A DNA stretch of 64,000 nt from an uncultured Actinomycetes bacterium. Its GTDB lineage: Bacteria > Actinomycetota > Thermoleophilia > UBA2241. The notes below the pieces were generated by a model. It ran no database searches, was not told the origin of the DNA, and saw only the letters and a program-made list of their open reading frames with translations. Positions 1-9,049 of this stretch are shown here, in pieces. The number at the start of each line of letters is the position of its first letter. The first letter of the stretch is position 1. The stretch lies in the NCBI GenBank assembly GCA_963725665.1, contig CAVRZA010000004.1:64001-128000 (forward strand), given 5' to 3'. Made by a program: the position numbers and the translations under genes.

Positions 1-67
1 TCCTCATACTGTTCGGCTGCGCTGCCGCGCGCCGGGGCAGGTCCGCCGGCGTCGACAACACACGCAT

Positions 68-94
68 TTCGAGACTCCTGTTTCCGTACCTTCC
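68..94. repeat. Second-family att-like site, inverted partner of 585-609
   Basis: Reverse complement GGAAGGTACGGAAACAGGAGTCTCGAA aligns with GGAAGGCACCCAAACAGGA--CTCGAA at 585-609. Confidence 0.5.
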
Positions 95-181
95 GGCTTG
101 CGGCCGTTGATTATGCGGCACGACCCGGGACTTGCCGCAAGCCCCCACCTGCGCTGTATATTGAAAGTGGAAAGGAGGGGG

Positions 182-340
182 GTACCGTCCTTTCCCTCTT
201 CGCGGCACGAGAGGTTCTTCACCCTCTTCAGCAAGGCCGGCTCGATTGTCGTCGAGAGCGCCAGCATTCTCATCGAGTTCGTCGCAGCGCTGCACGGAGC
301 TCTCCAACCGCATGCACGACACCGAGCACGCCGACGACGC
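182..340 (+). pseudogene. N-terminal fragment of a DUF47 (PhoU-like phosphate transport regulator) gene
   Basis: Two frames give RHERFFTLFSKAGSIVVESASILIEFVAA and ELSNRMHDTEHADD, matching the DUF47 N-terminus; AGGAGG lies upstream but the start is degenerate; homology ends at an att-like site at 342. Confidence 0.65.
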
Positions 341-341
341 G

Positions 342-371
342 GGTTCGAGAGTTGTCCACAGAGTGCACCTG
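342..371 (+). repeat. Degenerate copy of the att-like repeat
   Basis: GGTTCGAGAGTTGTCC versus consensus AGTTCGAGAGCTGTCT; the minus strand reads GQLSNP; lies at the DUF47 breakpoint. Confidence 0.5.
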
Positions 372-427
372 AGGAGATCGGCGACCGTGCCGCCTGTGGC
401 TAATGCCGGGCCTCACGCCGAGAGATC

Positions 428-489
428 AGTATCCACCAGGCGCTGCAGTTCAATCCGAAAGTTCGAGAGCTGTCTGGTTAGATCCACCA
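428..489 (+). repeat. att-like direct repeat copy 1 (tRNA-Ala-like 3' end)
   Basis: AGTATCCACCAGGCGCTG...AAGTTCGAGAGCTGTCTGGTTAGATCCACCA; the core 459-489 differs from copy 2 at 1 of 31 nt. Confidence 0.85.
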
Positions 490-529
490 AGCATTAGCAC
501 GATAGTAGGGTCATTCAGACCTTGGTCTT

Positions 530-564
530 GAGCCTGTCACCCCTGTTGGGCGGCAGGCTCTTTT
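530..564 (+). terminator. Intrinsic terminator downstream of att-like copy 1
   Basis: GAGCCTGTCACCC/GGGCGGCAGGCTC stem followed by TTTT. Confidence 0.6.
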
Positions 565-568
565 CGTT

Positions 569-612
569 GAGTTCGAGCTGTCAGGGAAGGCACCCAAACA
601 GGACTCGAACTC
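569..612. repeat. Symmetric att-like site containing a tRNA 3'-half-like sequence on the minus strand
   Basis: GAGTTCGAG-N26-CTCGAACTC inverted repeat; the minus strand reads GTTCGAGTCCTGTTTGGGTGCC (T-loop, T-stem 3' strand, acceptor-like strand) with no 5' half. Confidence 0.55.
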
Positions 613-632
613 ACCGACTGACGCCGTCTTGT

Positions 633-839
633 CTACCTGACGGGTTCGGACTTCGGCGGTCGCCCTCTTCGTGGCAACTCGCCGACGTTCTGTGGCAGAC
701 GGCCTGCACGGAAGAGGGCGCTGCGCAAGAGGAGTTCGATGTGTGCGTTGGTGCTGCGTAGCTCATCGGACGCCCAGCGAGCCAAAGCATCGTGAACGGC
801 CGGGTCCACGCGGATGAGCAGACTCTTTCTCTCAGGCAT
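633..839 (-). CDS. Ribbon-helix-helix (Arc/HicB-like) DNA-binding protein
   Basis: MPERKSLLIRVDPAVHDALARWASDELRSTNAHIELLLRSAL...RRGRPP is typical of the actinobacterial RHH family. Confidence 0.85.
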   Translation of the reverse strand: MPERKSLLIRVDPAVHDALARWASDELRSTNAHIELLLRSALFRAGRLPQNVGELPRRGRPPKSEPVR

Positions 840-925
840 TGACTTGAGCCTCACAGGAGGTCAGGGCTGACTCGCTCAGATCGGCAACCTCGATTTGTTT
901 GTCTACAAGACGCAACTGTAATAAA

Positions 926-935
926 CTGATATCAG
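926..935. promoter_or_regulatory. Palindromic operator candidate CTGATATCAG
   Basis: Perfect palindrome in the AT-rich spacer between the divergent RHH and ABC genes. Confidence 0.5.
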
Positions 936-981
936 ATTATAGGCCCAAGACCGTGCCCAGTCTAGGGACCAAGGAAGAGCA

Positions 982-1977
982 GTGAACCAACGAGCGTCGG
1001 TGAAGAAATCAGCGAGAGCGAGCCAAGCAAAGGCCGGCGCAGAGGCCGTCCAGGCTCTTGTTGTTGAGCATCTTCGCAAGACGTACGAGGGGACGGTCGC
1101 GGTCGATGACGTCTCGTTTACAGTCGCCGAGGGCGAGATCTTCGGCATCATCGGTCCCAACGGCGCCGGCAAGACGACGACGGTCGAGTGCGCCATCGGT
1201 CTGCGGACGCCCGACTCCGGAACCATCCGCGTCATGGCATTCGATCCTCACGTCGACCGTGCCCAGGTGCACGCGATCGTGGGAGCGCAACTGCAGACGA
1301 GTGCACTCCAACCCAGGCTGAGGGTCGGTGAGATCCTCGATCTCTACCGCTCCTTCTACCGAGATCCAGCCGATGTGGGCGAGCTGCTCGATGCGCTCGG
1401 GCTTCGTGAGAAGCGGAGCGCCTACTACAAGTCGCTGTCCGGCGGGCAAAAGCAGCGGCTCTCACTGGCCCTGGCGCTGGTCGGCCAGCCCAAGATCGCG
1501 ATCCTTGACGAGATGACGACGGGCCTCGATCCACAAGCCCGGCGCGATACATGGGAGTTGATCGAGGGGGTTCGCGATCGGGGCGTCACTGTCGTCCTGG
1601 TCACGCACTACATGGACGAGGCGGAGCGGCTCTGCGACCGCGTGGCACTCATCGACCAAGGACGCGTCGTGGCCATCGACAGTCCGGCGGCGTTGGCCGA
1701 GCAGGCTGGCGGTGGCAAGCGTGTGCGCTTCGTGCCATCGCAGCCTTTTGACGACCGTCTGCTGACCGCTCTCCCTGAAGTGACGAGCCTCGAACGACAG
1801 GGCCGCCACGTGCTTGTGAATGGCACGGGCGATCTGGTCAACACCGTGATCCTCACGCTGGCGACCGCCGGGGTGACGGCGAATGAAGTCGAGGTAGAGT
1901 CCGGGACGCTGGAGGACGCCTTCGTCAAGCTCACGGGTCGCCACCTCCATGAGGGAGACGAGGTGGCGGCGGGATGA
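982..1977 (+). CDS. ABC transporter ATP-binding protein (ABC-2/drug exporter type)
   Basis: Walker A GPNGAGKT, signature LSGGQ, Walker B ILDE, H-loop THY. Confidence 0.95.
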   Translation: MNQRASVKKSARASQAKAGAEAVQALVVEHLRKTYEGTVAVDDVSFTVAEGEIFGIIGPNGAGKTTTVECAIGLRTPDSGTIRVMAFDPHVDRAQVHAIVGAQLQTSALQPRLRVGEILDLYRSFYRDPADVGELLDALGLREKRSAYYKSLSGGQKQRLSLALALVGQPKIAILDEMTTGLDPQARRDTWELIEGVRDRGVTVVLVTHYMDEAERLCDRVALIDQGRVVAIDSPAALAEQAGGGKRVRFVPSQPFDDRLLTALPEVTSLERQGRHVLVNGTGDLVNTVILTLATAGVTANEVEVESGTLEDAFVKLTGRHLHEGDEVAAG

Positions 1978-2753
1978 ATGCCTCCGGGGAAGGGCTTCCC
2001 GCCTCGCCGCCGCGGGCCGCGTTCGGAAGGCTCGTTGCTTGTGAAGCCAGGCTGGCGTGGAGGGAGCCGATCGGGCTGGTCTTCGGTCTTGCCATTCCCG
2101 TGGTGTTGCTCGTGATCTTCGGCGCCGTGCCGAGTTCCCACGAGCAGCAAGCACAACTCGGCGGCCTCACCGTCATCGCGGTCTACGTCCCGATTCTGAT
2201 TGCGTTCTGCATCGGGATGCTCGCGCTCTTCAGCCTCCCGCGTGCCTTGGTCACCTACCGCGAGTTGGGCATCCTGCGGCGTCTCTCGACGACGCCGCTG
2301 CCACCGAGCTGGGTGCTCGCCGCGCAGCTGGCCATCAACTTCGTGCTCGCCGTGTGGGCGCTTATCATCCTGGTTGTGGTGGGCGTCGCTGCCTTCGGGG
2401 CCGCTGCTCCTAAAAGTCCAGCAGGATTTGCCTTGGCCTTCCTGCTATCGGTCGCCGCGCTGTTTGCCATGGGCTTGTGGGTCGCGGCGGTGGCCCGCAG
2501 CGCCACTGCTGCGAACGCAATGGGAGCCGCACTGTTCTTCCCCCTGGTTTTTTTCGCCGGTCTGTGGTATCCGCAGGAGTTCATGCCGGCGGCTTTGCGC
2601 CACCTCGGTCAGCTGACGCCGCTCGGCGCGTCGGTGCAGGCCCTGCAGAGCGCAAGCCAGGGCAACTTTCCTCCGACCGGATCGCTGTTGGTCCTGGCCG
2701 CCTACGGCGTCGTTTTCGCTCTGCTGGCGGTGAGGTCGTTCCGGTGGGAGTGA
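1974..2753 (+). CDS. ABC-2 type permease
   Basis: About six hydrophobic segments, YRELGILRRLSTTP motif; ATGA overlap with the ATPase gene. Confidence 0.92.
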   Translation: MNASGEGLPASPPRAAFGRLVACEARLAWREPIGLVFGLAIPVVLLVIFGAVPSSHEQQAQLGGLTVIAVYVPILIAFCIGMLALFSLPRALVTYRELGILRRLSTTPLPPSWVLAAQLAINFVLAVWALIILVVVGVAAFGAAAPKSPAGFALAFLLSVAALFAMGLWVAAVARSATAANAMGAALFFPLVFFAGLWYPQEFMPAALRHLGQLTPLGASVQALQSASQGNFPPTGSLLVLAAYGVVFALLAVRSFRWE

Positions 2754-2755
2754 CA

Positions 2756-2881
2756 ATGGGGGGCAGATACCGCGTCGCCGCGGCATTCTGGATGCTCTCG
2801 GACACCCACAGGCTCTGGCTCCTGTTCTGGATGGGGACCGCCAACACCACCACGCTCGTGTGTGATCGGGCCGAAACATGA
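2756..2881 (+). CDS. Possible 41-aa peptide or gene remnant
   Basis: ATG two nt after the permease stop; MGGRYRVAAAFWMLSDTHRLWLLFWMG...; stop overlaps the next ATG (ATGA). Confidence 0.35.
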   Translation: MGGRYRVAAAFWMLSDTHRLWLLFWMGTANTTTLVCDRAET

Positions 2882-3096
2882 AACATCCCGCCGACAAACC
2901 GGGCCGCAAGCTGTTTCTGCTGCGCATCGATTGCGAGCTGTGGAATCAGGTCGAGACGCGTGCCGCGGATGATCTCCGGTCGATCAACGCGGAAGTGGAG
3001 TGGCTGCTGCGCGAGGCGCTTCGCGGCCATGATGACAGTGGCATGATGCCGAGTCGGCCCGAGCCCAGAGACGCAGAGGAGCACGAGACGCGCTGA
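2878..3096 (+). CDS. Second Arc-like ribbon-helix-helix protein
   Basis: RKLFLLRIDCELWNQVETRAADDLRSINAEVEWLLREAL, paralogous to 633-839. Confidence 0.8.
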   Translation: MKHPADKPGRKLFLLRIDCELWNQVETRAADDLRSINAEVEWLLREALRGHDDSGMMPSRPEPRDAEEHETR

Positions 3097-3231
3097 GGAC
3101 CGAGATGCAATTCAGTGTCGGCTTGTAGGCCGGAGGCGACGACGGGTGCCGCGATCCCCACATGTCAAACGAGCCTTCCCCCGAGTATCATTCGGCGCGC
3201 AATCCACTTGCTACAACGTCATTGGCCTAGT

Positions 3232-3300
3232 AGGCGCTGGACTTCGAGGCGTAAGTTCGAGAGCTGTCTGGTTAGGTCCACCAGCGTTGACAGTTCGCCA
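3232..3300 (+). repeat. att-like direct repeat copy 2
   Basis: AGGCGCTGGACTTCGAGGCGTAAGTTCGAGAGCTGTCTGGTTAGGTCCACCAGCGTTGACAGTTCGCCA; contains a CTGGT-N7-ACCAG dyad. Confidence 0.9.
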
Positions 3301-3554
3301 ACGTTTTCCCTGCAAATCTTAAGCTTCTGTTGTCCGGTCGCTCACCGTAGATCCGTATCCGGCTGCTCCCCCAAACCCGGGTCTCGGTTGAAGCACCCGT
3401 TCCTGGGCAATGAGACGGGGGGCCGGGAAGGACGACGGAGCTAGCCAGATTGCCGATGACCTATACGGTCCAGGGTCAGGCGTCAAATGGTTTAGCGTCG
3501 ATGATCCGGAGAACAACCATTGGATGATTGTGCAGGAAACAAGAAGGGACGGCC

Positions 3555-3926
3555 ATGAATCCTAGTGAAGAAATTGACAATTTGATCGCGCAGAATCAGG
3601 ACTGGCGCGGTGCCACGCTAGCGAAGCTCCGCAAGACCATCCTTGAGGTTGATCCCGAGATCATTGAGGAGTGGAAATGGATGGGGTCACCAGTCTGGTC
3701 ACTCAACGGGATTATCTGTGTTGGGAATATTTTCAAGAATAAGGTGCAGCTCGTCTTCATGGACGGTGCGGCACTCAGTGATCCTGACAAACTCTTCAAT
3801 GCCGGACTTGAAGGCAACAAAAGGCGAGCTATTGACGTCTATGAAGGGGATCACATAGAAGAAGGTTCGCTAAAGACTCTTGTTCGTGCTGCCATAAGCT
3901 ACAACCAGGCAAAAGGCAAGAAGTAG
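3555..3926 (+). CDS. DUF1801 (YdhG-like) domain protein
   Basis: DWRGATLAKLRKTILEVDPEIIEEWKWMGSPVWS...LSDPDKLFNAGLEGNKRRAID; visibly lower GC than its flanks. Confidence 0.9.
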   Translation: MNPSEEIDNLIAQNQDWRGATLAKLRKTILEVDPEIIEEWKWMGSPVWSLNGIICVGNIFKNKVQLVFMDGAALSDPDKLFNAGLEGNKRRAIDVYEGDHIEEGSLKTLVRAAISYNQAKGKK

Positions 3927-4181
3927 GTCTGTCGATGGGGAAGATGCGGGCGGACCTTCCGTGAACGGCGGCGCACGTATCCGTGCTCGTCATCTGAGCC
4001 TGCGTGCGTTGCCCGGGTAGTCGTAGGTAAGCCCGTCTCGGTCGAAGAGGATTTCGGCGCGAAAGTCGTCATCGAGCAGCCAATGGCTCGCGCGGGCGCC
4101 GGTAGCCGACTGACGGACTCTTCCCGCCGGTTTGGCCTCTCAATCATCGGAGTGAGGCTCCGACGCTTGTGCTACACTATT

Positions 4182-4260
4182 AGTATCAACCAGACTCTGA
4201 ACTTCAAGGCGTAAGTTCGAGAGCTGCCTGGTTAGGTCCACCACCGTTGTCAATTCGACA
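4182..4260 (+). repeat. att-like direct repeat copy 3
   Basis: AGTATCAACCAGACTCTGAACTTCAAGGCGTAAGTTCGAGAGCTGCCTGGTTAGGTCCACCACCGTTGTCAATTCGACA. Confidence 0.9.
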
Positions 4261-4268
4261 CGCCACGC

Positions 4269-4299
4269 AGCGACTCGTGGTTCTTGCGCACGAGTCGCT
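4269..4299. terminator. Hairpin downstream of att-like copy 3
   Basis: AGCGACTCGTG/CACGAGTCGCT 11-bp perfect stem, no U-tract. Confidence 0.4.
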
Positions 4300-4525
4300 C
4301 AAGCCGTACCTCAAGTAGCGGCGCTCGCTGGCGACTCCGGTGCCGGTGAGCCGCCCGATCGCGGCCTTGCGTGCGCTTCCACCACTTGTCCTCGCAGCCG
4401 AGAGGAGTAGGCTCAACCTGCGTGCGACACCCTCGCCATGGCTCCGCTGGCGGTCTGAGCGCGTGCGAGCCGGGGGCAGGACCACCGTGACCCGGGCGCC
4501 GGCCGGCCCGGCGAGGAGGCAGCGG

Positions 4526-7500
4526 ATGACGGCTGCGGTGAGACAGCCGAGCACGACTTTCAGGGTCTTCGTCAGCTCGACCTTCGAGGACTTCCGGGCC
4601 GAGCGGAACGCGCTCCAACGGTACGTCTTTCCGCGGCTGGCGGAGCTGTGCGCGACCCGGGACGCGCGGTTCCAGGCGATCGACCTGCGCTGGGGCGTCG
4701 GCGAGGAGGCAAGCCTCGACCAGCGCGCCATCCCCATCTGCCTTACCGAGATCGAGCGCTGCCAGCGGGTCACGCCGCGGCCCAACTTCATCGTGCTCAT
4801 GGGCGACCGCTACGGCTGGCGCCCGCTGCCCGCCCGCATCGACGCTGCGGAGTTCGAGCTGCTGCTCGCGACGATCCCGGAGGAGGATGCCGCGGTCCTG
4901 GCCTGGTCGCAAGGGCAGGCGGCGGGAGCCGAAGGCTGGTACCGCCGCGACGACAATGCGGTGCCTCCCGAGTACGTGCTACGGCCGCGCAGGTTAGTCG
5001 TGCCCGAGGGCGCGAGCGAGGAGGAACGTGAGGACGCCGCGGAGGCCGAGCGCCGGGAGTGGACGACGGTCGAGGCGCGGCTGCGGGCGATCCTTCTCCG
5101 CGCGGTGGATGCGCTCGGCTGGGCCGAGGCCGAGCCAGCGCGGCGTAAGTACGTGGCCTCGGCGACCGAGCAGGAGATCGTGCTCGGCGCCCTCGAGGCC
5201 GACGGCGCCGCCGAGCACGTCTTCGCTTTCTTCCGCACCATCGACGGCCTGCCCGCGGGCGAGTCCGCCAAGAGGTTCTGCGACCTGACGGCGTCGCCGA
5301 AGGGACTCGTCCCCGACGCGGACGCGCGGGCCAGGCTCACATCGCTCAGTGCGGAGTTGCGGGACGTGCTCGGCAGCCACGCGCTGGACTCCTACCGGGC
5401 GAGGTGGACGGGCGAAGGGATCACCACCGATCACCTGGGGACGCTGCCCGAGGATCTGAGCGACTGCTTGGGCCTGCTCGACGAGCCGGATGCGCCGCAT
5501 ACCCTCTGCGCCGATGTCTGGCGCAGCATCGCCGGCGTGATCAAGAGCGAGCTCGACCGGCCGGAGGCTGACGAGGCCATCGACCGGGAGATCGCGCGCC
5601 ACGCGAGGTTCGGCGAGGCGCGGTGTCGGGACTTCGTCGGCCGGGAGGAGGTCCGCACGGAGATCGCCGCCTACCTGGCGGGGACCGAGGCTCATCCGCT
5701 CGTGCTGGTGGGCGAGGGCGGCTCGGGCAAGTCGGCGCTCATGGCCAAAGCGGTGCAAGAGGCCGTGAGCGCACATCCGGGCGCCGTCGTCGCTGCGCGC
5801 TTCATCGGCGCCACACCCGCCGCCTCCGACGGGCGCTCGCTGCTCGACGCCGTCTGCCGCCAGCTGGCACGGGCCACCGGCGGCGACGAGGCGACGCTCC
5901 CGGCCGGGCTGTCGGACCTTTCGGTCGAGCTCGCCCGGCACCTCGCTCGCGCCACGGCGGAGCTGCCGGTCTTCGTGTTCCTCGACGCGCTGGACCAGCT
6001 CGGCGCCACCGACCCGGCTCGTGGCCTCGCTTGGCTGCCCGCGAGCCTGCCCGACCACGCCCGGCTGGTGGTCTCCACCGTGCCGGGCGCCTGCGAGACC
6101 GCTCTGCGGGCCAGGCGCCCGGAGCCGCGGTTCCTCAGCCTCGACAGGATGTCGCGCCGGGAAGGCGAGACGGTGCTTGAGATCTGGCTCGACAAGGAGG
6201 GCCGCACGCTGCAGGAAGGGCAGCGGGCGGCGGTGCTCGATGCGTTCGAGCCCGAAGGCCGCCCGCTCTATCTCAGGCTGGCCTTCGAGGAGGCGCGGCT
6301 GTGGCGCTCGTTCAGCGCGCCGGCCGAGACGAGGCTGCAACCCGGCATTCCCGGACTCATTCGAGGCAACCTGCTGGCCCGTCTGGAGGCGCCCGAGAAC
6401 CACGGCCGGCAGCTAGTGGCGCGTGCGCTCGCCGCCCTCGCCGCCTCGCGCCACGGCCTGGCGGAGGACGAGCTCGTGGCGCTGCTGTCGGCGGACGCCG
6501 ACGTGATCGCCGACTTCCGCCGCCGCTCGCCGCGCTCGCCCGCCGTCGGGCAACTGCCGGTGGTGGTGTGGTCGCGCCTCTACTTCGACCTTGAACCGTA
6601 CCTGTCCGAGCACGCCACCGACGGAGCCACGCTGCTGGCTTTCTACCACCGCGCCCTCGCCGAGGCGGCCCGGGAGGAGTACCTAGCGGATGAGCCCGAG
6701 CGGCGCGTCGTCAACTCGGGCCTCGCCCGCTACTTCCGCGGGGTGGCCGACCCGAACGGAGACGGCGACTGGCAGCCGCGCGCCCGGGCGCTGGCGGAGC
6801 TGCCGTTCCACCTGGCGGAGAGCGCGGCGGCCGGCGAGCGAGGCGCGGCGGAGGAGCTTGAGGCGCTCCTCACACAACTCGGGTACCTGGCCGCCCGGGT
6901 CGCCACCGGCAAGGCCTACGAGCTGGTCGCCGCATACGAGCTCACCGAGCCGCTGGGCCCGGCGCTCATCGAGTGGCGGGGCTTCCTGGAGAAGCACGCC
7001 CAGCGCCTGTACCAGCATCCGGCCATGCTCGTCGGGCTGGTGAACCACGAAGGCTTCGCCGCCGCCCGGGCGCAGGTGGACGACGTGCCGCACCCAGGCG
7101 TCTGGCTCCGCACGTCGCCGGAGTCCCTGCCGGGGCCCGAGCCCGGGCTCGGGCCCGAAGGCGGCGACGCGGAGGCGGTGGCCGCGGGCGGGATCGAGGT
7201 CGCCGCCAGCCTGTCCTTCTCCTCGCCGCGCGTGCTGGCGGTCGCGCCCGACCGGGAGGCGGGGTTCGTCCTCGATGGCCTCGGCATCCTGCGTGTGCTC
7301 GACTTGCGCGCCATGCGGGAGACGGAGACGACACTGCCGATCAGGCGCGAGCCGCTGCTCACGCTCGCCGCTGCGCCGGACGGCGGCGGCCTCATGGCGG
7401 TCTACGAGTCGGCGGTCGGCGAGCTCTACCGTTGCCACGAGGGCCCGGACGGCCTGCCGTCGAGCCTGGAGGCCGTGACCGCCGTCGAGTGTGGGCTGCC

Positions 7501-9049
7501 GGAGTTCGAGGCGCCGGTCGCCGTGTGGCACCGGCGCCGGTTCTGGTTCCAGGCCGGCTCGGGCGCGCTCGGCAGCGTGTCGCTCGAGGAGCCGGCGGTC
7601 GTGGAGGATCCGCTGCCGGGCGGCGAAGCCGCCGAGCTCGCGGCGCTCGTGCACGACACGGACGCGGGTGCGGCCGTGATCGTGCTGCGGGAGGCACACG
7701 ACACGCTGCTCATCGCGCCCGACGGTTCGACCCTGCGGCGGTCCGGGGTGGAGCCCGCGGCCGCCGTCGCGTGCGGCCCGGCCCGGTGTGCCGTGCTCTT
7801 CAGCGACGGCGAGCTCGTGGTCTACGACTGCGGCGCGGCGCTCACACCCGTGTGCCAGACGCGCGTCGGGGTCGTGCTGGGGCACATCGGCTGGGACGGC
7901 TCTCGGCTCCTCTGGCTGGACCCGGAACACAACGTGACGGCCTGGTCTCCCGGCGATGGCTCGCCCGCCCGGCTGCGGGGGGCCGAAAGCCTGTTCCCGC
8001 GAGGCCTGCTCAAGGTCCCGCTGGACTGGCTCCCCCGGCCCGGCGGCGGGATGCTGGCGGTCACCACGCACGGCGTGGACGCGTTCCGCGTCGCGATTGC
8101 GAAGCCGGGAGGCGCCGGCGTGTTCCAGGAGCTGTTCGGCGGCCAGGCTTGGCTGGCCGTCGACCGGCGGGGGGACGAGTGGTGGCTGGTCCGGGGCCAG
8201 CCCTCCAGCCAGGTGCCGCTCGCCCGCGCCCTCAGCGGCCGCTTCTTCTGCGCCGTGGACGGCCGCGGCAGCTTCTATGCGGCGAACGGCCATGGAGCCG
8301 ACGTCGTGGTCGACCTTGCCTCCCTGGACCGCGCACCCATCGAGGGCTGCCCCTTGGGTCTCAACGCCGCCGCCGGCGACCGGCGGGAAGGCTGCTGGCT
8401 GGTCGACCGGGCGGGCGACATCTACGCCGTCGACCCTGCCGGGCACTGCCGGCCGGCGGTGCGCTGCGAACTGCGGGAACCCTTGGGCGCCCGGCTGCTG
8501 GACTGCGGGGACTGGCTGGTGTGGTCCGGCCTGGCCAGCGCGACCTTCGCCGATGTCGGCGACGAGCCTGCGCCGACGTTGCTGTTCTACCGCAAGCTGT
8601 CGTCGGGGGCCGGCGCGACGCTGGAGCTGGCCGGCCGGTACGTGCGCCACCCGAACGAGGGCCAGTCCTCCGGCCTGTGGTTCGACGACGCCGCCGGCCG
8701 TCTCGTCTCCCTGTGGCTGGCGCCTCGTCATGAGGAGGAGCCCTACAGGCTGCTGGTCGCCCCGCTCGAGGACGCCACGGCCGGGCGCTTCACGGAGACG
8801 CCGGTCGTGGGCTTGGGCAACGTGCGATGCGCCGGCGGCAGCCTGTCTGCCGACGGCGCGTTCCTGGGCCTGCTGACCGGCGTCGGCGAGCTTCACTGTG
8901 TCCGCGTCGCTGACGGCAGGAGCGTCGCCATCCTGGCCGGCAGTCTGCCGTTCACGTCCGTGGCGGCCGGCCCGCGGGCCGCGGAGTTCTGGCTGGCCGA
9001 AGCACAGGCGCAGCCCTATCACTGCAGCGTAATCGGAGGGGACCCATGA
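4526..9049 (+). CDS. DUF4062-NACHT (STAND) NTPase with C-terminal beta-propeller-like repeats (NWD/TEP1-like architecture)
   Basis: N-terminal FRVFVSSTFEDFRAERNAL...IDLRWGV (DUF4062); Walker A GEGGSGKS; Walker B VFLDALDQL; GRPLYLRLA and GLAEDEL helical motifs; beta-rich Trp/Asp C-terminal half; GAGGAGG before ATG 4526. Confidence 0.88.
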   Translation: MTAAVRQPSTTFRVFVSSTFEDFRAERNALQRYVFPRLAELCATRDARFQAIDLRWGVGEEASLDQRAIPICLTEIERCQRVTPRPNFIVLMGDRYGWRPLPARIDAAEFELLLATIPEEDAAVLAWSQGQAAGAEGWYRRDDNAVPPEYVLRPRRLVVPEGASEEEREDAAEAERREWTTVEARLRAILLRAVDALGWAEAEPARRKYVASATEQEIVLGALEADGAAEHVFAFFRTIDGLPAGESAKRFCDLTASPKGLVPDADARARLTSLSAELRDVLGSHALDSYRARWTGEGITTDHLGTLPEDLSDCLGLLDEPDAPHTLCADVWRSIAGVIKSELDRPEADEAIDREIARHARFGEARCRDFVGREEVRTEIAAYLAGTEAHPLVLVGEGGSGKSALMAKAVQEAVSAHPGAVVAARFIGATPAASDGRSLLDAVCRQLARATGGDEATLPAGLSDLSVELARHLARATAELPVFVFLDALDQLGATDPARGLAWLPASLPDHARLVVSTVPGACETALRARRPEPRFLSLDRMSRREGETVLEIWLDKEGRTLQEGQRAAVLDAFEPEGRPLYLRLAFEEARLWRSFSAPAETRLQPGIPGLIRGNLLARLEAPENHGRQLVARALAALAASRHGLAEDELVALLSADADVIADFRRRSPRSPAVGQLPVVVWSRLYFDLEPYLSEHATDGATLLAFYHRALAEAAREEYLADEPERRVVNSGLARYFRGVADPNGDGDWQPRARALAELPFHLAESAAAGERGAAEELEALLTQLGYLAARVATGKAYELVAAYELTEPLGPALIEWRGFLEKHAQRLYQHPAMLVGLVNHEGFAAARAQVDDVPHPGVWLRTSPESLPGPEPGLGPEGGDAEAVAAGGIEVAASLSFSSPRVLAVAPDREAGFVLDGLGILRVLDLRAMRETETTLPIRREPLLTLAAAPDGGGLMAVYESAVGELYRCHEGPDGLPSSLEAVTAVECGLPEFEAPVAVWHRRRFWFQAGSGALGSVSLEEPAVVEDPLPGGEAAELAALVHDTDAGAAVIVLREAHDTLLIAPDGSTLRRSGVEPAAAVACGPARCAVLFSDGELVVYDCGAALTPVCQTRVGVVLGHIGWDGSRLLWLDPEHNVTAWSPGDGSPARLRGAESLFPRGLLKVPLDWLPRPGGGMLAVTTHGVDAFRVAIAKPGGAGVFQELFGGQAWLAVDRRGDEWWLVRGQPSSQVPLARALSGRFFCAVDGRGSFYAANGHGADVVVDLASLDRAPIEGCPLGLNAAAGDRREGCWLVDRAGDIYAVDPAGHCRPAVRCELREPLGARLLDCGDWLVWSGLASATFADVGDEPAPTLLFYRKLSSGAGATLELAGRYVRHPNEGQSSGLWFDDAAGRLVSLWLAPRHEEEPYRLLVAPLEDATAGRFTETPVVGLGNVRCAGGSLSADGAFLGLLTGVGELHCVRVADGRSVAILAGSLPFTSVAAGPRAAEFWLAEAQAQPYHCSVIGGDP

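Follow-up and report, generated by a model that had tools for sequence, protein, structure and literature searches.

Which process has placed three direct repeats, each resembling the 3' end of a tRNA, at the borders of small gene modules in the genome of an uncultured soil bacterium of the class Thermoleophilia (Actinomycetota)? The repeats are located near the left end of a 64,000-nt stretch of DNA (the window), which corresponds to G000:C4:64001-128000, i.e., to part of contig 4 of the source assembly GCA_963725665.1 (G000; 3.73 Mb, 12 contigs, 68 % G+C). The feature is real, and largely as an initial annotation made from the sequence alone had read it. Probably, the locus represents an accretion array of minimal integrative cassettes which carry no recombinase of their own, possess attP-like ends and would be moved by an integrase acting in trans. 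The array is arranged in the order tRNA-Met(CAT), arr, an RHH-ABC-permease-RHH module, a DUF1801 module and a NACHT gene. Its cassettes have precise boundaries and co-oriented ends, are reused in other orders in related genomes and have no recombinase in their neighbourhood.

The 31-nt core of the repeats (AAGTTCGAGAGCTGYCTGGTTAGRTCCACCA) matches the plus strand at 459-489, 3253-3283 and 4213-4243, as the initial annotation had reported, with 0 matches expected from 100 dinucleotide shuffles. All belong to a single repeat family comprising three 69-nt copies (438-506, 3232-3300 and 4192-4260) at spacings of 2794 and 960 nt. A scan of the 3.73-Mb assembly for the core with up to three mismatches yielded only the window's three copies. 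A profile built from relatives added a fourth, more divergent copy on contig 1 (C1:121913-121971, E 1.9e-12), 1.5 kb past tRNA-Ala(TGC), and revealed none on contig 4 beyond the third. In the following, these repeats are referred to as right ends (RE), which measure about 75 nt and terminate with TCCACCA, and LE denotes the left end of a cassette. RE1 (413..489; nhmmer E 1.3e-16) forms the right end of the arr cassette, its TCCACCA ending at 489, and is followed by RE2 (3212..3283; E 5.9e-17) and RE3 (4173..4243; E 1.7e-15), all on the plus strand. The conserved right arm previously seen after copies 2 and 3 is a hairpin which is also present after the true tRNA at the head of the array.

This tRNA is not the one that had been expected. 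A tRNA-Ala or tmRNA ending TAGGTCCACCA had been predicted to the left of the window, but ARAGORN analysis of the whole assembly revealed instead a tRNA-Met(CAT) whose gene (C4:63421-63497, +) is separated from the left edge of the window by about 0.5 kb and ends GGGCCCACCA, the RE ending GGTCCACCA. By resemblance, we take it to be possibly the lysidine-type tRNA-Ile2. The tmRNA of G000 is located 360 kb from the array. The tRNA-Met is followed on its 3' side by a hairpin with a T-run (CGTTGTCAGATTGACAACGTTT), then by a CCCTGCAAA box and then by CCGGTCGCC. This type-A LE (hairpin/CCCTGCAAA/CCGGTCGC) is common to the 3' flanks of tRNA-Met and RE2, and a stump of it is retained after RE3; after RE1, the conserved flank is another one, designated type B.

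Cassette 1 (arr; 992 nt, G000:C4:63498-64489, plus strand, 1..489 of the window) starts directly after the tRNA-Met with the hairpin left end. A counterpart lacking this cassette was found in a contig from a peat metagenome, where the last tRNA base is joined to the type-B flank seen after RE1 (90 % likeness); likewise, four family genomes display tRNA-Met followed directly by flank B. It follows from these junctions that in G000 the arr cassette, 992 nt long, has been inserted precisely between two CCACCA ends. The metagenomic junctions derive from assembled contigs, two joints at the tRNA end (698->1729 and 687->1797) being used; other joints had short sides (20-31 nt, one 58) or were located in conserved genes and were not used.

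With respect to the origin of the RE, comparison with real tRNA 3' halves revealed GGTTCGA(G/C) in common, then a 5-nt insertion (AGYTG) after GGTTCGAG, before the likeness resumes with TC..TTAGGTCCACCA. The RE on contig 1 differs from the end of tRNA-Ala(TGC) at 2 of the last 17 positions. From its alignment to the tRNA-Ala(TGC) 3' half, the RE is best described as a tRNA-Ala-derived 3' end, which would no longer be able to form a T arm because of the 5-nt insertion. The initial annotation had placed TTCGA 5 nt too far from CCA, which is exact, and had regarded the repeats as hybrid sites rather than tRNA genes, in agreement with the broken T arm and the lack of ARAGORN and Rfam calls: no tRNA or tmRNA gene was detected in the window (ARAGORN), no Rfam family within positions 1-6000 at E up to 10 (nothing above chance), and, up to E 0.05, none in 60 kb of metagenome sequence from nine multi-RE loci. 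An RE acting as tRNA or tmRNA gene was rejected on these grounds. Also rejected was an attC-like site or RNA hairpin, since RNAalifold on 43 REs gave -0.47 kcal/mol with six trivial pairs and no covariation. The proposed likeness to a tRNA-Ala 3' end holds for the RE itself and for the heads of other RE arrays, but not for the head of the array studied here; the RE and its tRNA-Met target have only GGTTCGAG and CCACCA in common. The TGGT-N7-ACCA geometry, taken earlier for a recombinase core site, is not conserved, as 14 of 43 aligned REs contain GTCCACYTAGG or similar.

Relatives with REs are uncultured Thermoleophilia and other Actinomycetota known from metagenome-assembled genomes. Within the family, 11 of 36 sampled genomes contain the RE core versus none of 24 genomes from seven other families of the class, and a six-frame peptide profile detected the RE in 53 of 89 family genomes; in viral contigs the RE pattern had 0 matches. 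A set of 166 genome and metagenome loci (898 kb, duplicates retained) comprises 241 REs and 123 type-A LEs, with 95 REs directly abutting an LE. Co-orientation was observed in 50 out of 50 loci having more than one full RE. Spacings from RE to RE amount to 377-6511 nt (median 1651) in 59 cases and to 71-106 nt in seven. The tRNA-Met(CAT) is present in 19 of the 166 loci, in 15 of which an LE follows immediately on its 3' side, and REs are also located downstream of tRNA-Ala(GGC), tRNA-Ala(TGC) and tRNA-Ala(CGC).

Cassette content and order were compared between relatives, as the initial annotation had recommended, and both were found to differ, next to the precise empty site described above. 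The arr cassette, present in 40 of 89 family genomes, stands directly after tRNA-Met in G000, G012, G023 and G036, is second in G028 and follows the seventh RE in G001:C165 (G, C and L numbers designating genomes, contigs and loci, respectively). In G015, the ABC cassette begins 6 nt past the tRNA-Met; in G001, G073 and G061 it occupies other array positions, and DUF1801 follows arr in G036 and G001. The orders observed are tRNA-arr-ABC-DUF1801 (G000), tRNA-arr-DUF1801 (G036), tRNA-ABC (G015), RE-ABC-RE-arr-DUF1801 (G001) and tRNA-X-arr-Y (G028), with identities of reused cassettes across orders of 78-93 %; the same cassettes, at 85-93 % identity, occupy different array positions in different genera.

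These relationships bear on the explanation of the array as a dead fossil, according to which remnants of independent autonomous tRNA islands have lost their integrases by decay (as in a classic cis-mobilizable element, CIME), the RE is a diverged displaced tRNA fragment and nothing is mobile today. Broken integrase paralogues are indeed common in G000, which also contains, at no fewer than 10 other tRNAs, stacks of the classical type built with true tRNA 3' fragments, some of them with broken integrases. The explanation is nevertheless distinctly unlikely: 180 unique REs on unrelated cargo have both the 5-nt insertion and the approximately 75 nt in common and therefore point to one propagating lineage of ends instead of many independent decays, no integrase fragment was detected in about 0.95 Mb around REs, and cassettes with 85-93 % identity are found at different array positions in different genera.

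Which enzyme would move the cassettes? The initial annotation had seen no recombinase locally, and the search in the assemblies bears this out: G000 has 18 PF00589 matches, all of them outside the 654-kb contig 4, and an integrase profile based on seven such domains of G000, which as a control matched 28 segments in G000, had 0 matches in 5366 open segments of 170 RE loci, i.e., in the 0.95 Mb around REs mentioned above. In 89 further loci (370 kb), one weak match was obtained upstream of the second tRNA-Met copy in G030; this integrase-like open reading frame (ORF) was dismissed as short and apparently broken. Among other mechanisms, a serine recombinase was rejected on account of the absence of PF00239 from G000 and G028, and an IS200/IS605 mechanism on account of the absence of PF01797 (Y1) and PF07282 (TnpB) from G000, G001 and G028, with controls positive in 6 and 8 of 14 genomes. 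Rejection of the Xer/dif system rests on a weak test, in which the dif-like site C8:215857 of G000 was found to resemble neither RE nor LE. Likewise discarded was a long "master" recombinase gene beginning with the RE: wherever the six-frame peptide profile, with matches in 53 of 89 genomes, hit a long open frame, the motif was located at the C-terminal end of that frame; no RE ORF exceeded 98 amino acids in 95 metagenome copies.

Since the serine recombinase, Y1 and TnpB families are absent from the searched genomes, tyrosine recombinases are the sole classical class left in these assemblies. A lead toward them may be provided by the TTTC-CCCTGCAAA box, which is also found 3' of 7 or 8 other tRNAs of G000, namely Pro(GGG), Arg(CCT), Arg(TCT), Leu(TAA), Phe, Thr(TGT) and Cys; integrase genes or fragments are located within 5 kb of five of these tRNAs. 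An intact integrase of G028 shares 61 % identity with that encoded at C2:582114-583247 of G000, where many broken paralogues exist. The exact LE 12-mer formed no informative cluster elsewhere in G000.

In the favoured mechanism, each cassette would consist of one to few cargo genes and the two halves of an attP-like site. The LE half, corresponding to the P' arm, would comprise the hairpin, the CCCTGCAAA box and one to three CCTACCCGGTCG repeats, and the RE half, corresponding to the P arm, two or three T-loop-like GTTCGAG boxes followed by the crossover core (T/C)CCACCA. The arrangement RE|CCACCA|LE resembles a lambda-type attP, with the one to three tandem CCTACCCGGTCG units of the LE and the two or three GTTCGAG boxes of the RE as candidate arm sites. 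The RE would have descended from a tRNA-Ala 3' end after the gain of 5 nt. Circles of cargo plus attP would integrate in one orientation, exactly 3' of CCACCA at the end of tRNA-Met(CAT), of tRNA-Ala or of a resident RE, and thus new cassettes would pile up behind the tRNA. Cutting and joining would be performed by an arm-binding tyrosine integrase of the lambda type, the gene of which would be located elsewhere or on an element that the assemblies lack. It is from the arrangement of the sites that we infer both the action of this integrase in trans and the circular intermediate.

Several observations weigh against this mechanism. No integrase is linked to the sites, nor is one located in the vicinity of any of the 241 REs, and neither an excised circle nor an RE|LE circle junction was seen in the assembled contigs. 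Many tRNAs of G000 end with CCCACCA or TCCACCA yet are devoid of RE cassettes, which leaves the specificity unaccounted for. The conserved micro-ORF of the RE, described below, is not predicted by the model. Contigs of low G+C from other phyla contain an identical RE core beside a hammerhead ribozyme, a neighbourhood which hints at an RNA-level role. Finally, copies of arr are only 26-66 % identical over about 40 nt after the LE hairpin versus 85-100 % elsewhere; this mosaic is not what a simple crossover at CCACCA would produce and suggests that gene conversion has occurred or that there is a second point of exchange.

Conversion among LE copies would also be expected if no dedicated recombinase existed and RE, LE and tRNA merely acted as portable homology, such that homologous recombination after DNA uptake reshuffles the cassettes of a flexible island. 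Such a process would agree with the lack of a recombinase near any RE and with G001, where arr and DUF1801 adjoin without an RE between them. It is considered unlikely, though, as the insertion of arr is base-exact at CCACCA on both sides, tRNA and RE have no more than about 7 nt and the GGTTCGAG box in common there, which does not suffice for RecA-type exchange, and co-orientation in 50 of 50 loci together with standard ends on 76 cargos fits site-specific insertion better.

The micro-ORF is located on the minus strand of the RE and has its GTG start inside the core; its product reads V-D-L-(T/S)-(R/G)-Q-L-S-N-(L/F)-R-x-E-V-x-R-L-L. In the window, micro-ORF 1 (413..487, minus strand) starts within the CCACCA core and comprises 24 codons (VDLTRQLSNFRIELQRLVDTDLSA) and a stop, micro-ORF 2 (3219..3281, minus strand) 20 codons (VDLTRQLSNLRLEVQRLLGQ) and a stop, and micro-ORF 3 (4140..4241, minus strand) 33 codons and a stop. 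Across 180 unique REs, the first 18 codons contain 2 stops, whereas the other frames of the minus strand have 108-218; column entropy amounts to 0.82, 0.71 and 1.17 at codon positions 1, 2 and 3, respectively, a pattern reached by 289 of 20000 permutations. The ORF ends at most seven codons after codon 19 in 131 of the 180 (22 and 43 in the other frames) and is 20-25 codons long in 126. Synonymous changes account for 55.5 % of single-base codon differences versus at most 51.7 % in 200 column shuffles. Significance is overstated by all of these statistics, the sequences being related and not independent.

The peptide (VDLTRQLSNLRxEVQRLL) is charged and amphipathic and has no Pfam or PHROG match; a type I toxin-antitoxin system was rejected, since the toxin of such a system would be small and hydrophobic. 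An extended -10-like box (TGCTACAAT or a variant of it) is located on the plus strand immediately to the left of the micro-ORF stop, at 3205-3217 and 4176-4188, and similar boxes occur in a subset of other REs (L062, L033 and L055). The box could drive an antisense RNA of about 70 nt ending at the LE hairpin. The RE might thus be read mainly as a gene module, encoding a peptide of 20-25 amino acids with or without this antisense RNA (from the TGCTACAAT box to the hairpin terminator), with an addiction-like or regulatory role and repetition as a secondary matter. While the minus-strand coding signature in stops, entropy, ORF end and synonymous excess as well as the plus-strand box upstream of several copies would accord with such a module, it is highly improbable: the peptide is unlike type I toxins and matches no known family in Pfam or PHROG, and neither the exact abutment of the RE to the tRNA end or LE nor the co-orientation would be explained.

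The low-G+C version of the RE was found at L058:2917-3173, in a contig labelled Candidatus Saccharibacteria (41.5 % G+C), and in L154 (53.6 % G+C, three REs), both with an identical RE core. In both loci, a match to the hammerhead type III ribozyme (RF00008) is located 175-230 nt upstream of the RE core on the same strand, with 31.5 and 41.2 bits (E 0.0036 and 6.5e-6 for L058 and L154, respectively), i.e., below the gathering score of 48.5. Between ribozyme match and RE core lies a minus-strand ORF of 65-66 codons with the RE peptide motif at both ends; its 66-amino-acid version belongs to no Pfam or PHROG family and has one homologue among proteins of 36-116 amino acids. The region L058:2900-3215 has a fold z-score of -6.1, and a weak RAGATH-10 match was obtained in L154.

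A more novel reading is a chromosomal gene-capture platform of Thermoleophilia, integron-like in its working but made of different parts, with a tRNA end as entry, a composite site of about 170 nt derived from tRNA-Ala, a remote or unrecognised recombinase, and a leaderless micro-protein, its start codon within the crossover core, taking part in the reaction or its control. Such a platform is conceivable, albeit doubtful; if true, the RE core beside hammerheads in other phyla would mark a wider, undescribed family of elements.

How do the cassettes compare with known systems? Integrons consist of small cassettes, each with cargo and one site, which are stacked at one entry site, carry accessory functions and are moved by a recombinase encoded outside the cassettes. 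The array studied here likewise contains small one-site cassettes at one entry, accessory cargo (resistance, toxin-antitoxin and detoxification genes) and no recombinase within the cassettes; unlike integrons, it has no intI by the array, no attC-type fold, cargo on both strands and a tRNA 3' end as entry. The integron-like nature claimed in the initial annotation therefore stands as a functional analogy only, because an attC-like fold is lacking and cargo is found on both strands. Integrative mobile elements exploiting Xer (IMEX) and pdif modules are devoid of a recombinase and are moved by the host's XerC/D; the cassettes share with them the recombinase-less design and an enzyme presumed to be encoded elsewhere, but the RE and LE bear no likeness to the dif-like site C8:215857, which is itself a weak comparison.

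More closely related are CIMEs and the accretion arrays of ICESt1-related elements in Streptococcus thermophilus, which lack integration and transfer genes, retain their att sites and stack in tandem at the 3' end of a target gene (PMC5704250). CIMEs are described as decay products of individual integrative and conjugative (ICEs) or integrative and mobilizable elements (IMEs), with an attR that copies the target end. As in CIMEs so described, the present cassettes are flanked by directly oriented att-like ends beside the target (tRNA and each RE end with CCACCA, co-oriented in 50 of 50 loci), and genes for integration or transfer were not found in them (Pfam analysis of the window genes; 0 matches of the integrase profile). 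Different from that description, at least 76 cargos share one standard RE/LE pair, and no ICE, IME or integrase remnant was found beside the arrays (about 0.95 Mb; one weak, broken match in a further 370 kb). With respect to attR, the RE resembles the 3' end of tRNA-Ala(TGC) with 5 additional nt and matches the tRNA-Met target only at GGTTCGAG and CCACCA.

Tycheposons of Prochlorococcus are defined as integrase-carrying elements flanked by partial tRNAs, successive integrations pushing older ones inward, and their islands contain degenerate remnants with partial tRNAs scattered throughout (10.1101/2020.12.28.424599). The cassettes resemble these elements in integrating beside tRNA genes and piling up, and differ from them, as there portrayed, in lacking a recombinase of their own and in that the repeat does not represent a partial copy of the tRNA next to it. 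Classical tRNA and tmRNA islands (Islander) encode their own tyrosine integrase and are bordered by an identical displaced tRNA fragment (PMC4383910). Shared with that type are the 3' part of a tRNA gene as target, the intact tRNA and the direct repeats at the ends, while an own integrase and an identical displaced tRNA fragment are lacking here.

The process matches CIME-type accretion and tycheposon-style pile-up, which are already known. Distinct are the one standard tRNA-Ala-derived end pair on many small cargos, the lack of any trace of a parent element and the micro-ORF. No description of the RE/LE cassette family was found in the literature searched.

We know of no integrons reported in Actinomycetota; if the cassettes are moved in trans, they would constitute a cassette system in this phylum. 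Genes for resistance (arr), efflux, detoxification and toxin-antitoxin functions would then be traded in units of one to three genes among soil and peat bacteria. The standard RE/LE ends are simple sequence tags by which the pool of mobile genes in an abundant class of uncultured bacteria can be catalogued, and the combination of RE|LE and tRNA end offers a defined substrate for finding the recombinase.

In total, 81 cassettes (76 unique) with cargo of 0.4-6.5 kb were compiled, and Pfam analysis was performed on 130 ORFs. The commonest cargo families are HepT, zinc alcohol dehydrogenase and TetR (seven each) and ABC ATPase (five), followed by Arr, 2-phosphosulfolactate phosphatase and MNT-type nucleotidyltransferases (three each). 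No recombinase was present among the 25 most frequent of the 121 Pfam families matched by the 130 cargo ORFs. Cargo ORFs are found on both strands (97 on the RE strand, 54 on the opposite one) according to a crude ORF caller which missed arr itself.

In the array of G000, the gene content described previously between the repeats agrees with Pfam. The arr gene of cassette 1 (C4:63585-63995, minus strand) codes for rifampin ADP-ribosyltransferase (PF12120 Arr-ms, E 5.9e-46). About 100 nt upstream of RE1, a shorter tRNA-end-like box (GGTTCGAGAGTTGTCCAC..) is located at 340..362 (+), with counterparts upstream of REs in G028 and G001. Cassette 2 (490..3283, 2794 nt, plus strand) starts with the type-B flank including a terminator-like hairpin (about 490-600), followed by four genes assigned by Pfam, i.e., a HicB/RHH-like gene (633-854, minus strand), an ABC ATPase (982-1977, plus), an ABC-2 permease (1974-2753, plus) and an Arc-like RHH gene (2878-3096, plus), and ends with RE2. 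Cassette 3 (3284..4243, 960 nt, 55 % G+C, plus strand) harbours the DUF1801 gene (3555-3926, plus; PF08818) ahead of RE3. Its type-A LE (3284..3365, plus; nhmmer LE E 3.6e-8) consists of hairpin and T-run, TTTTCCCTGCAAAT and CCGGTCGC and is homologous to the flank 3' of the real tRNA-Met. RE3 is followed by a shortened hairpin (CCGTTGTCAATTCGACACG; 4244..4262, plus), which is probably either a left end that was cut or the terminator which the tRNA locus originally had. The DUF4062/NACHT (STAND) gene (4340..9049, plus; Pfam), located to the right of RE3, may represent either cargo or chromosome.

The type-B flank after RE1 contains an additional RE-like box (GAGTTCGAGCTGTCAGGGAAGGCACC) at 570-596, just past a terminator-like hairpin at 522-559, and the box is kept in the type-B flanks of relatives. 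A third kind of flank, with repeated CTGAT(C/G)CTTGACRG boxes, follows tRNA-Met or RE in L088 (G070:C19) and L056; in G070 it bounds a 2.2-kb molybdate-transporter unit which ends in a true partial copy of tRNA-Met. Such type-C flanks (repeated CTGATCCTTGACGG boxes after tRNA-Met) have no integrase there.

Elsewhere in G000, several very AT-rich stretches hit by the dif-pattern scan are located near the contig end at C4:644500-651500, differ from the 68 % G+C of the genome and may be foreign or mis-binned. On contigs 1, 2, 6 and 8, true tRNA 3'-fragment direct repeats are located downstream of Glu(CTC), Ala(TGC), Arg(CCT), Pro(GGG), Lys(CTT), two other tRNA-Met(CAT) and others, several of these classical repeat units measuring 1.4-1.8 kb and having no integrase nearby. 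ARAGORN moreover identified a tRNA-Pyl(CTA) at C6:343702-343774, with a repeat of its 3' fragment 1.2 kb downstream.

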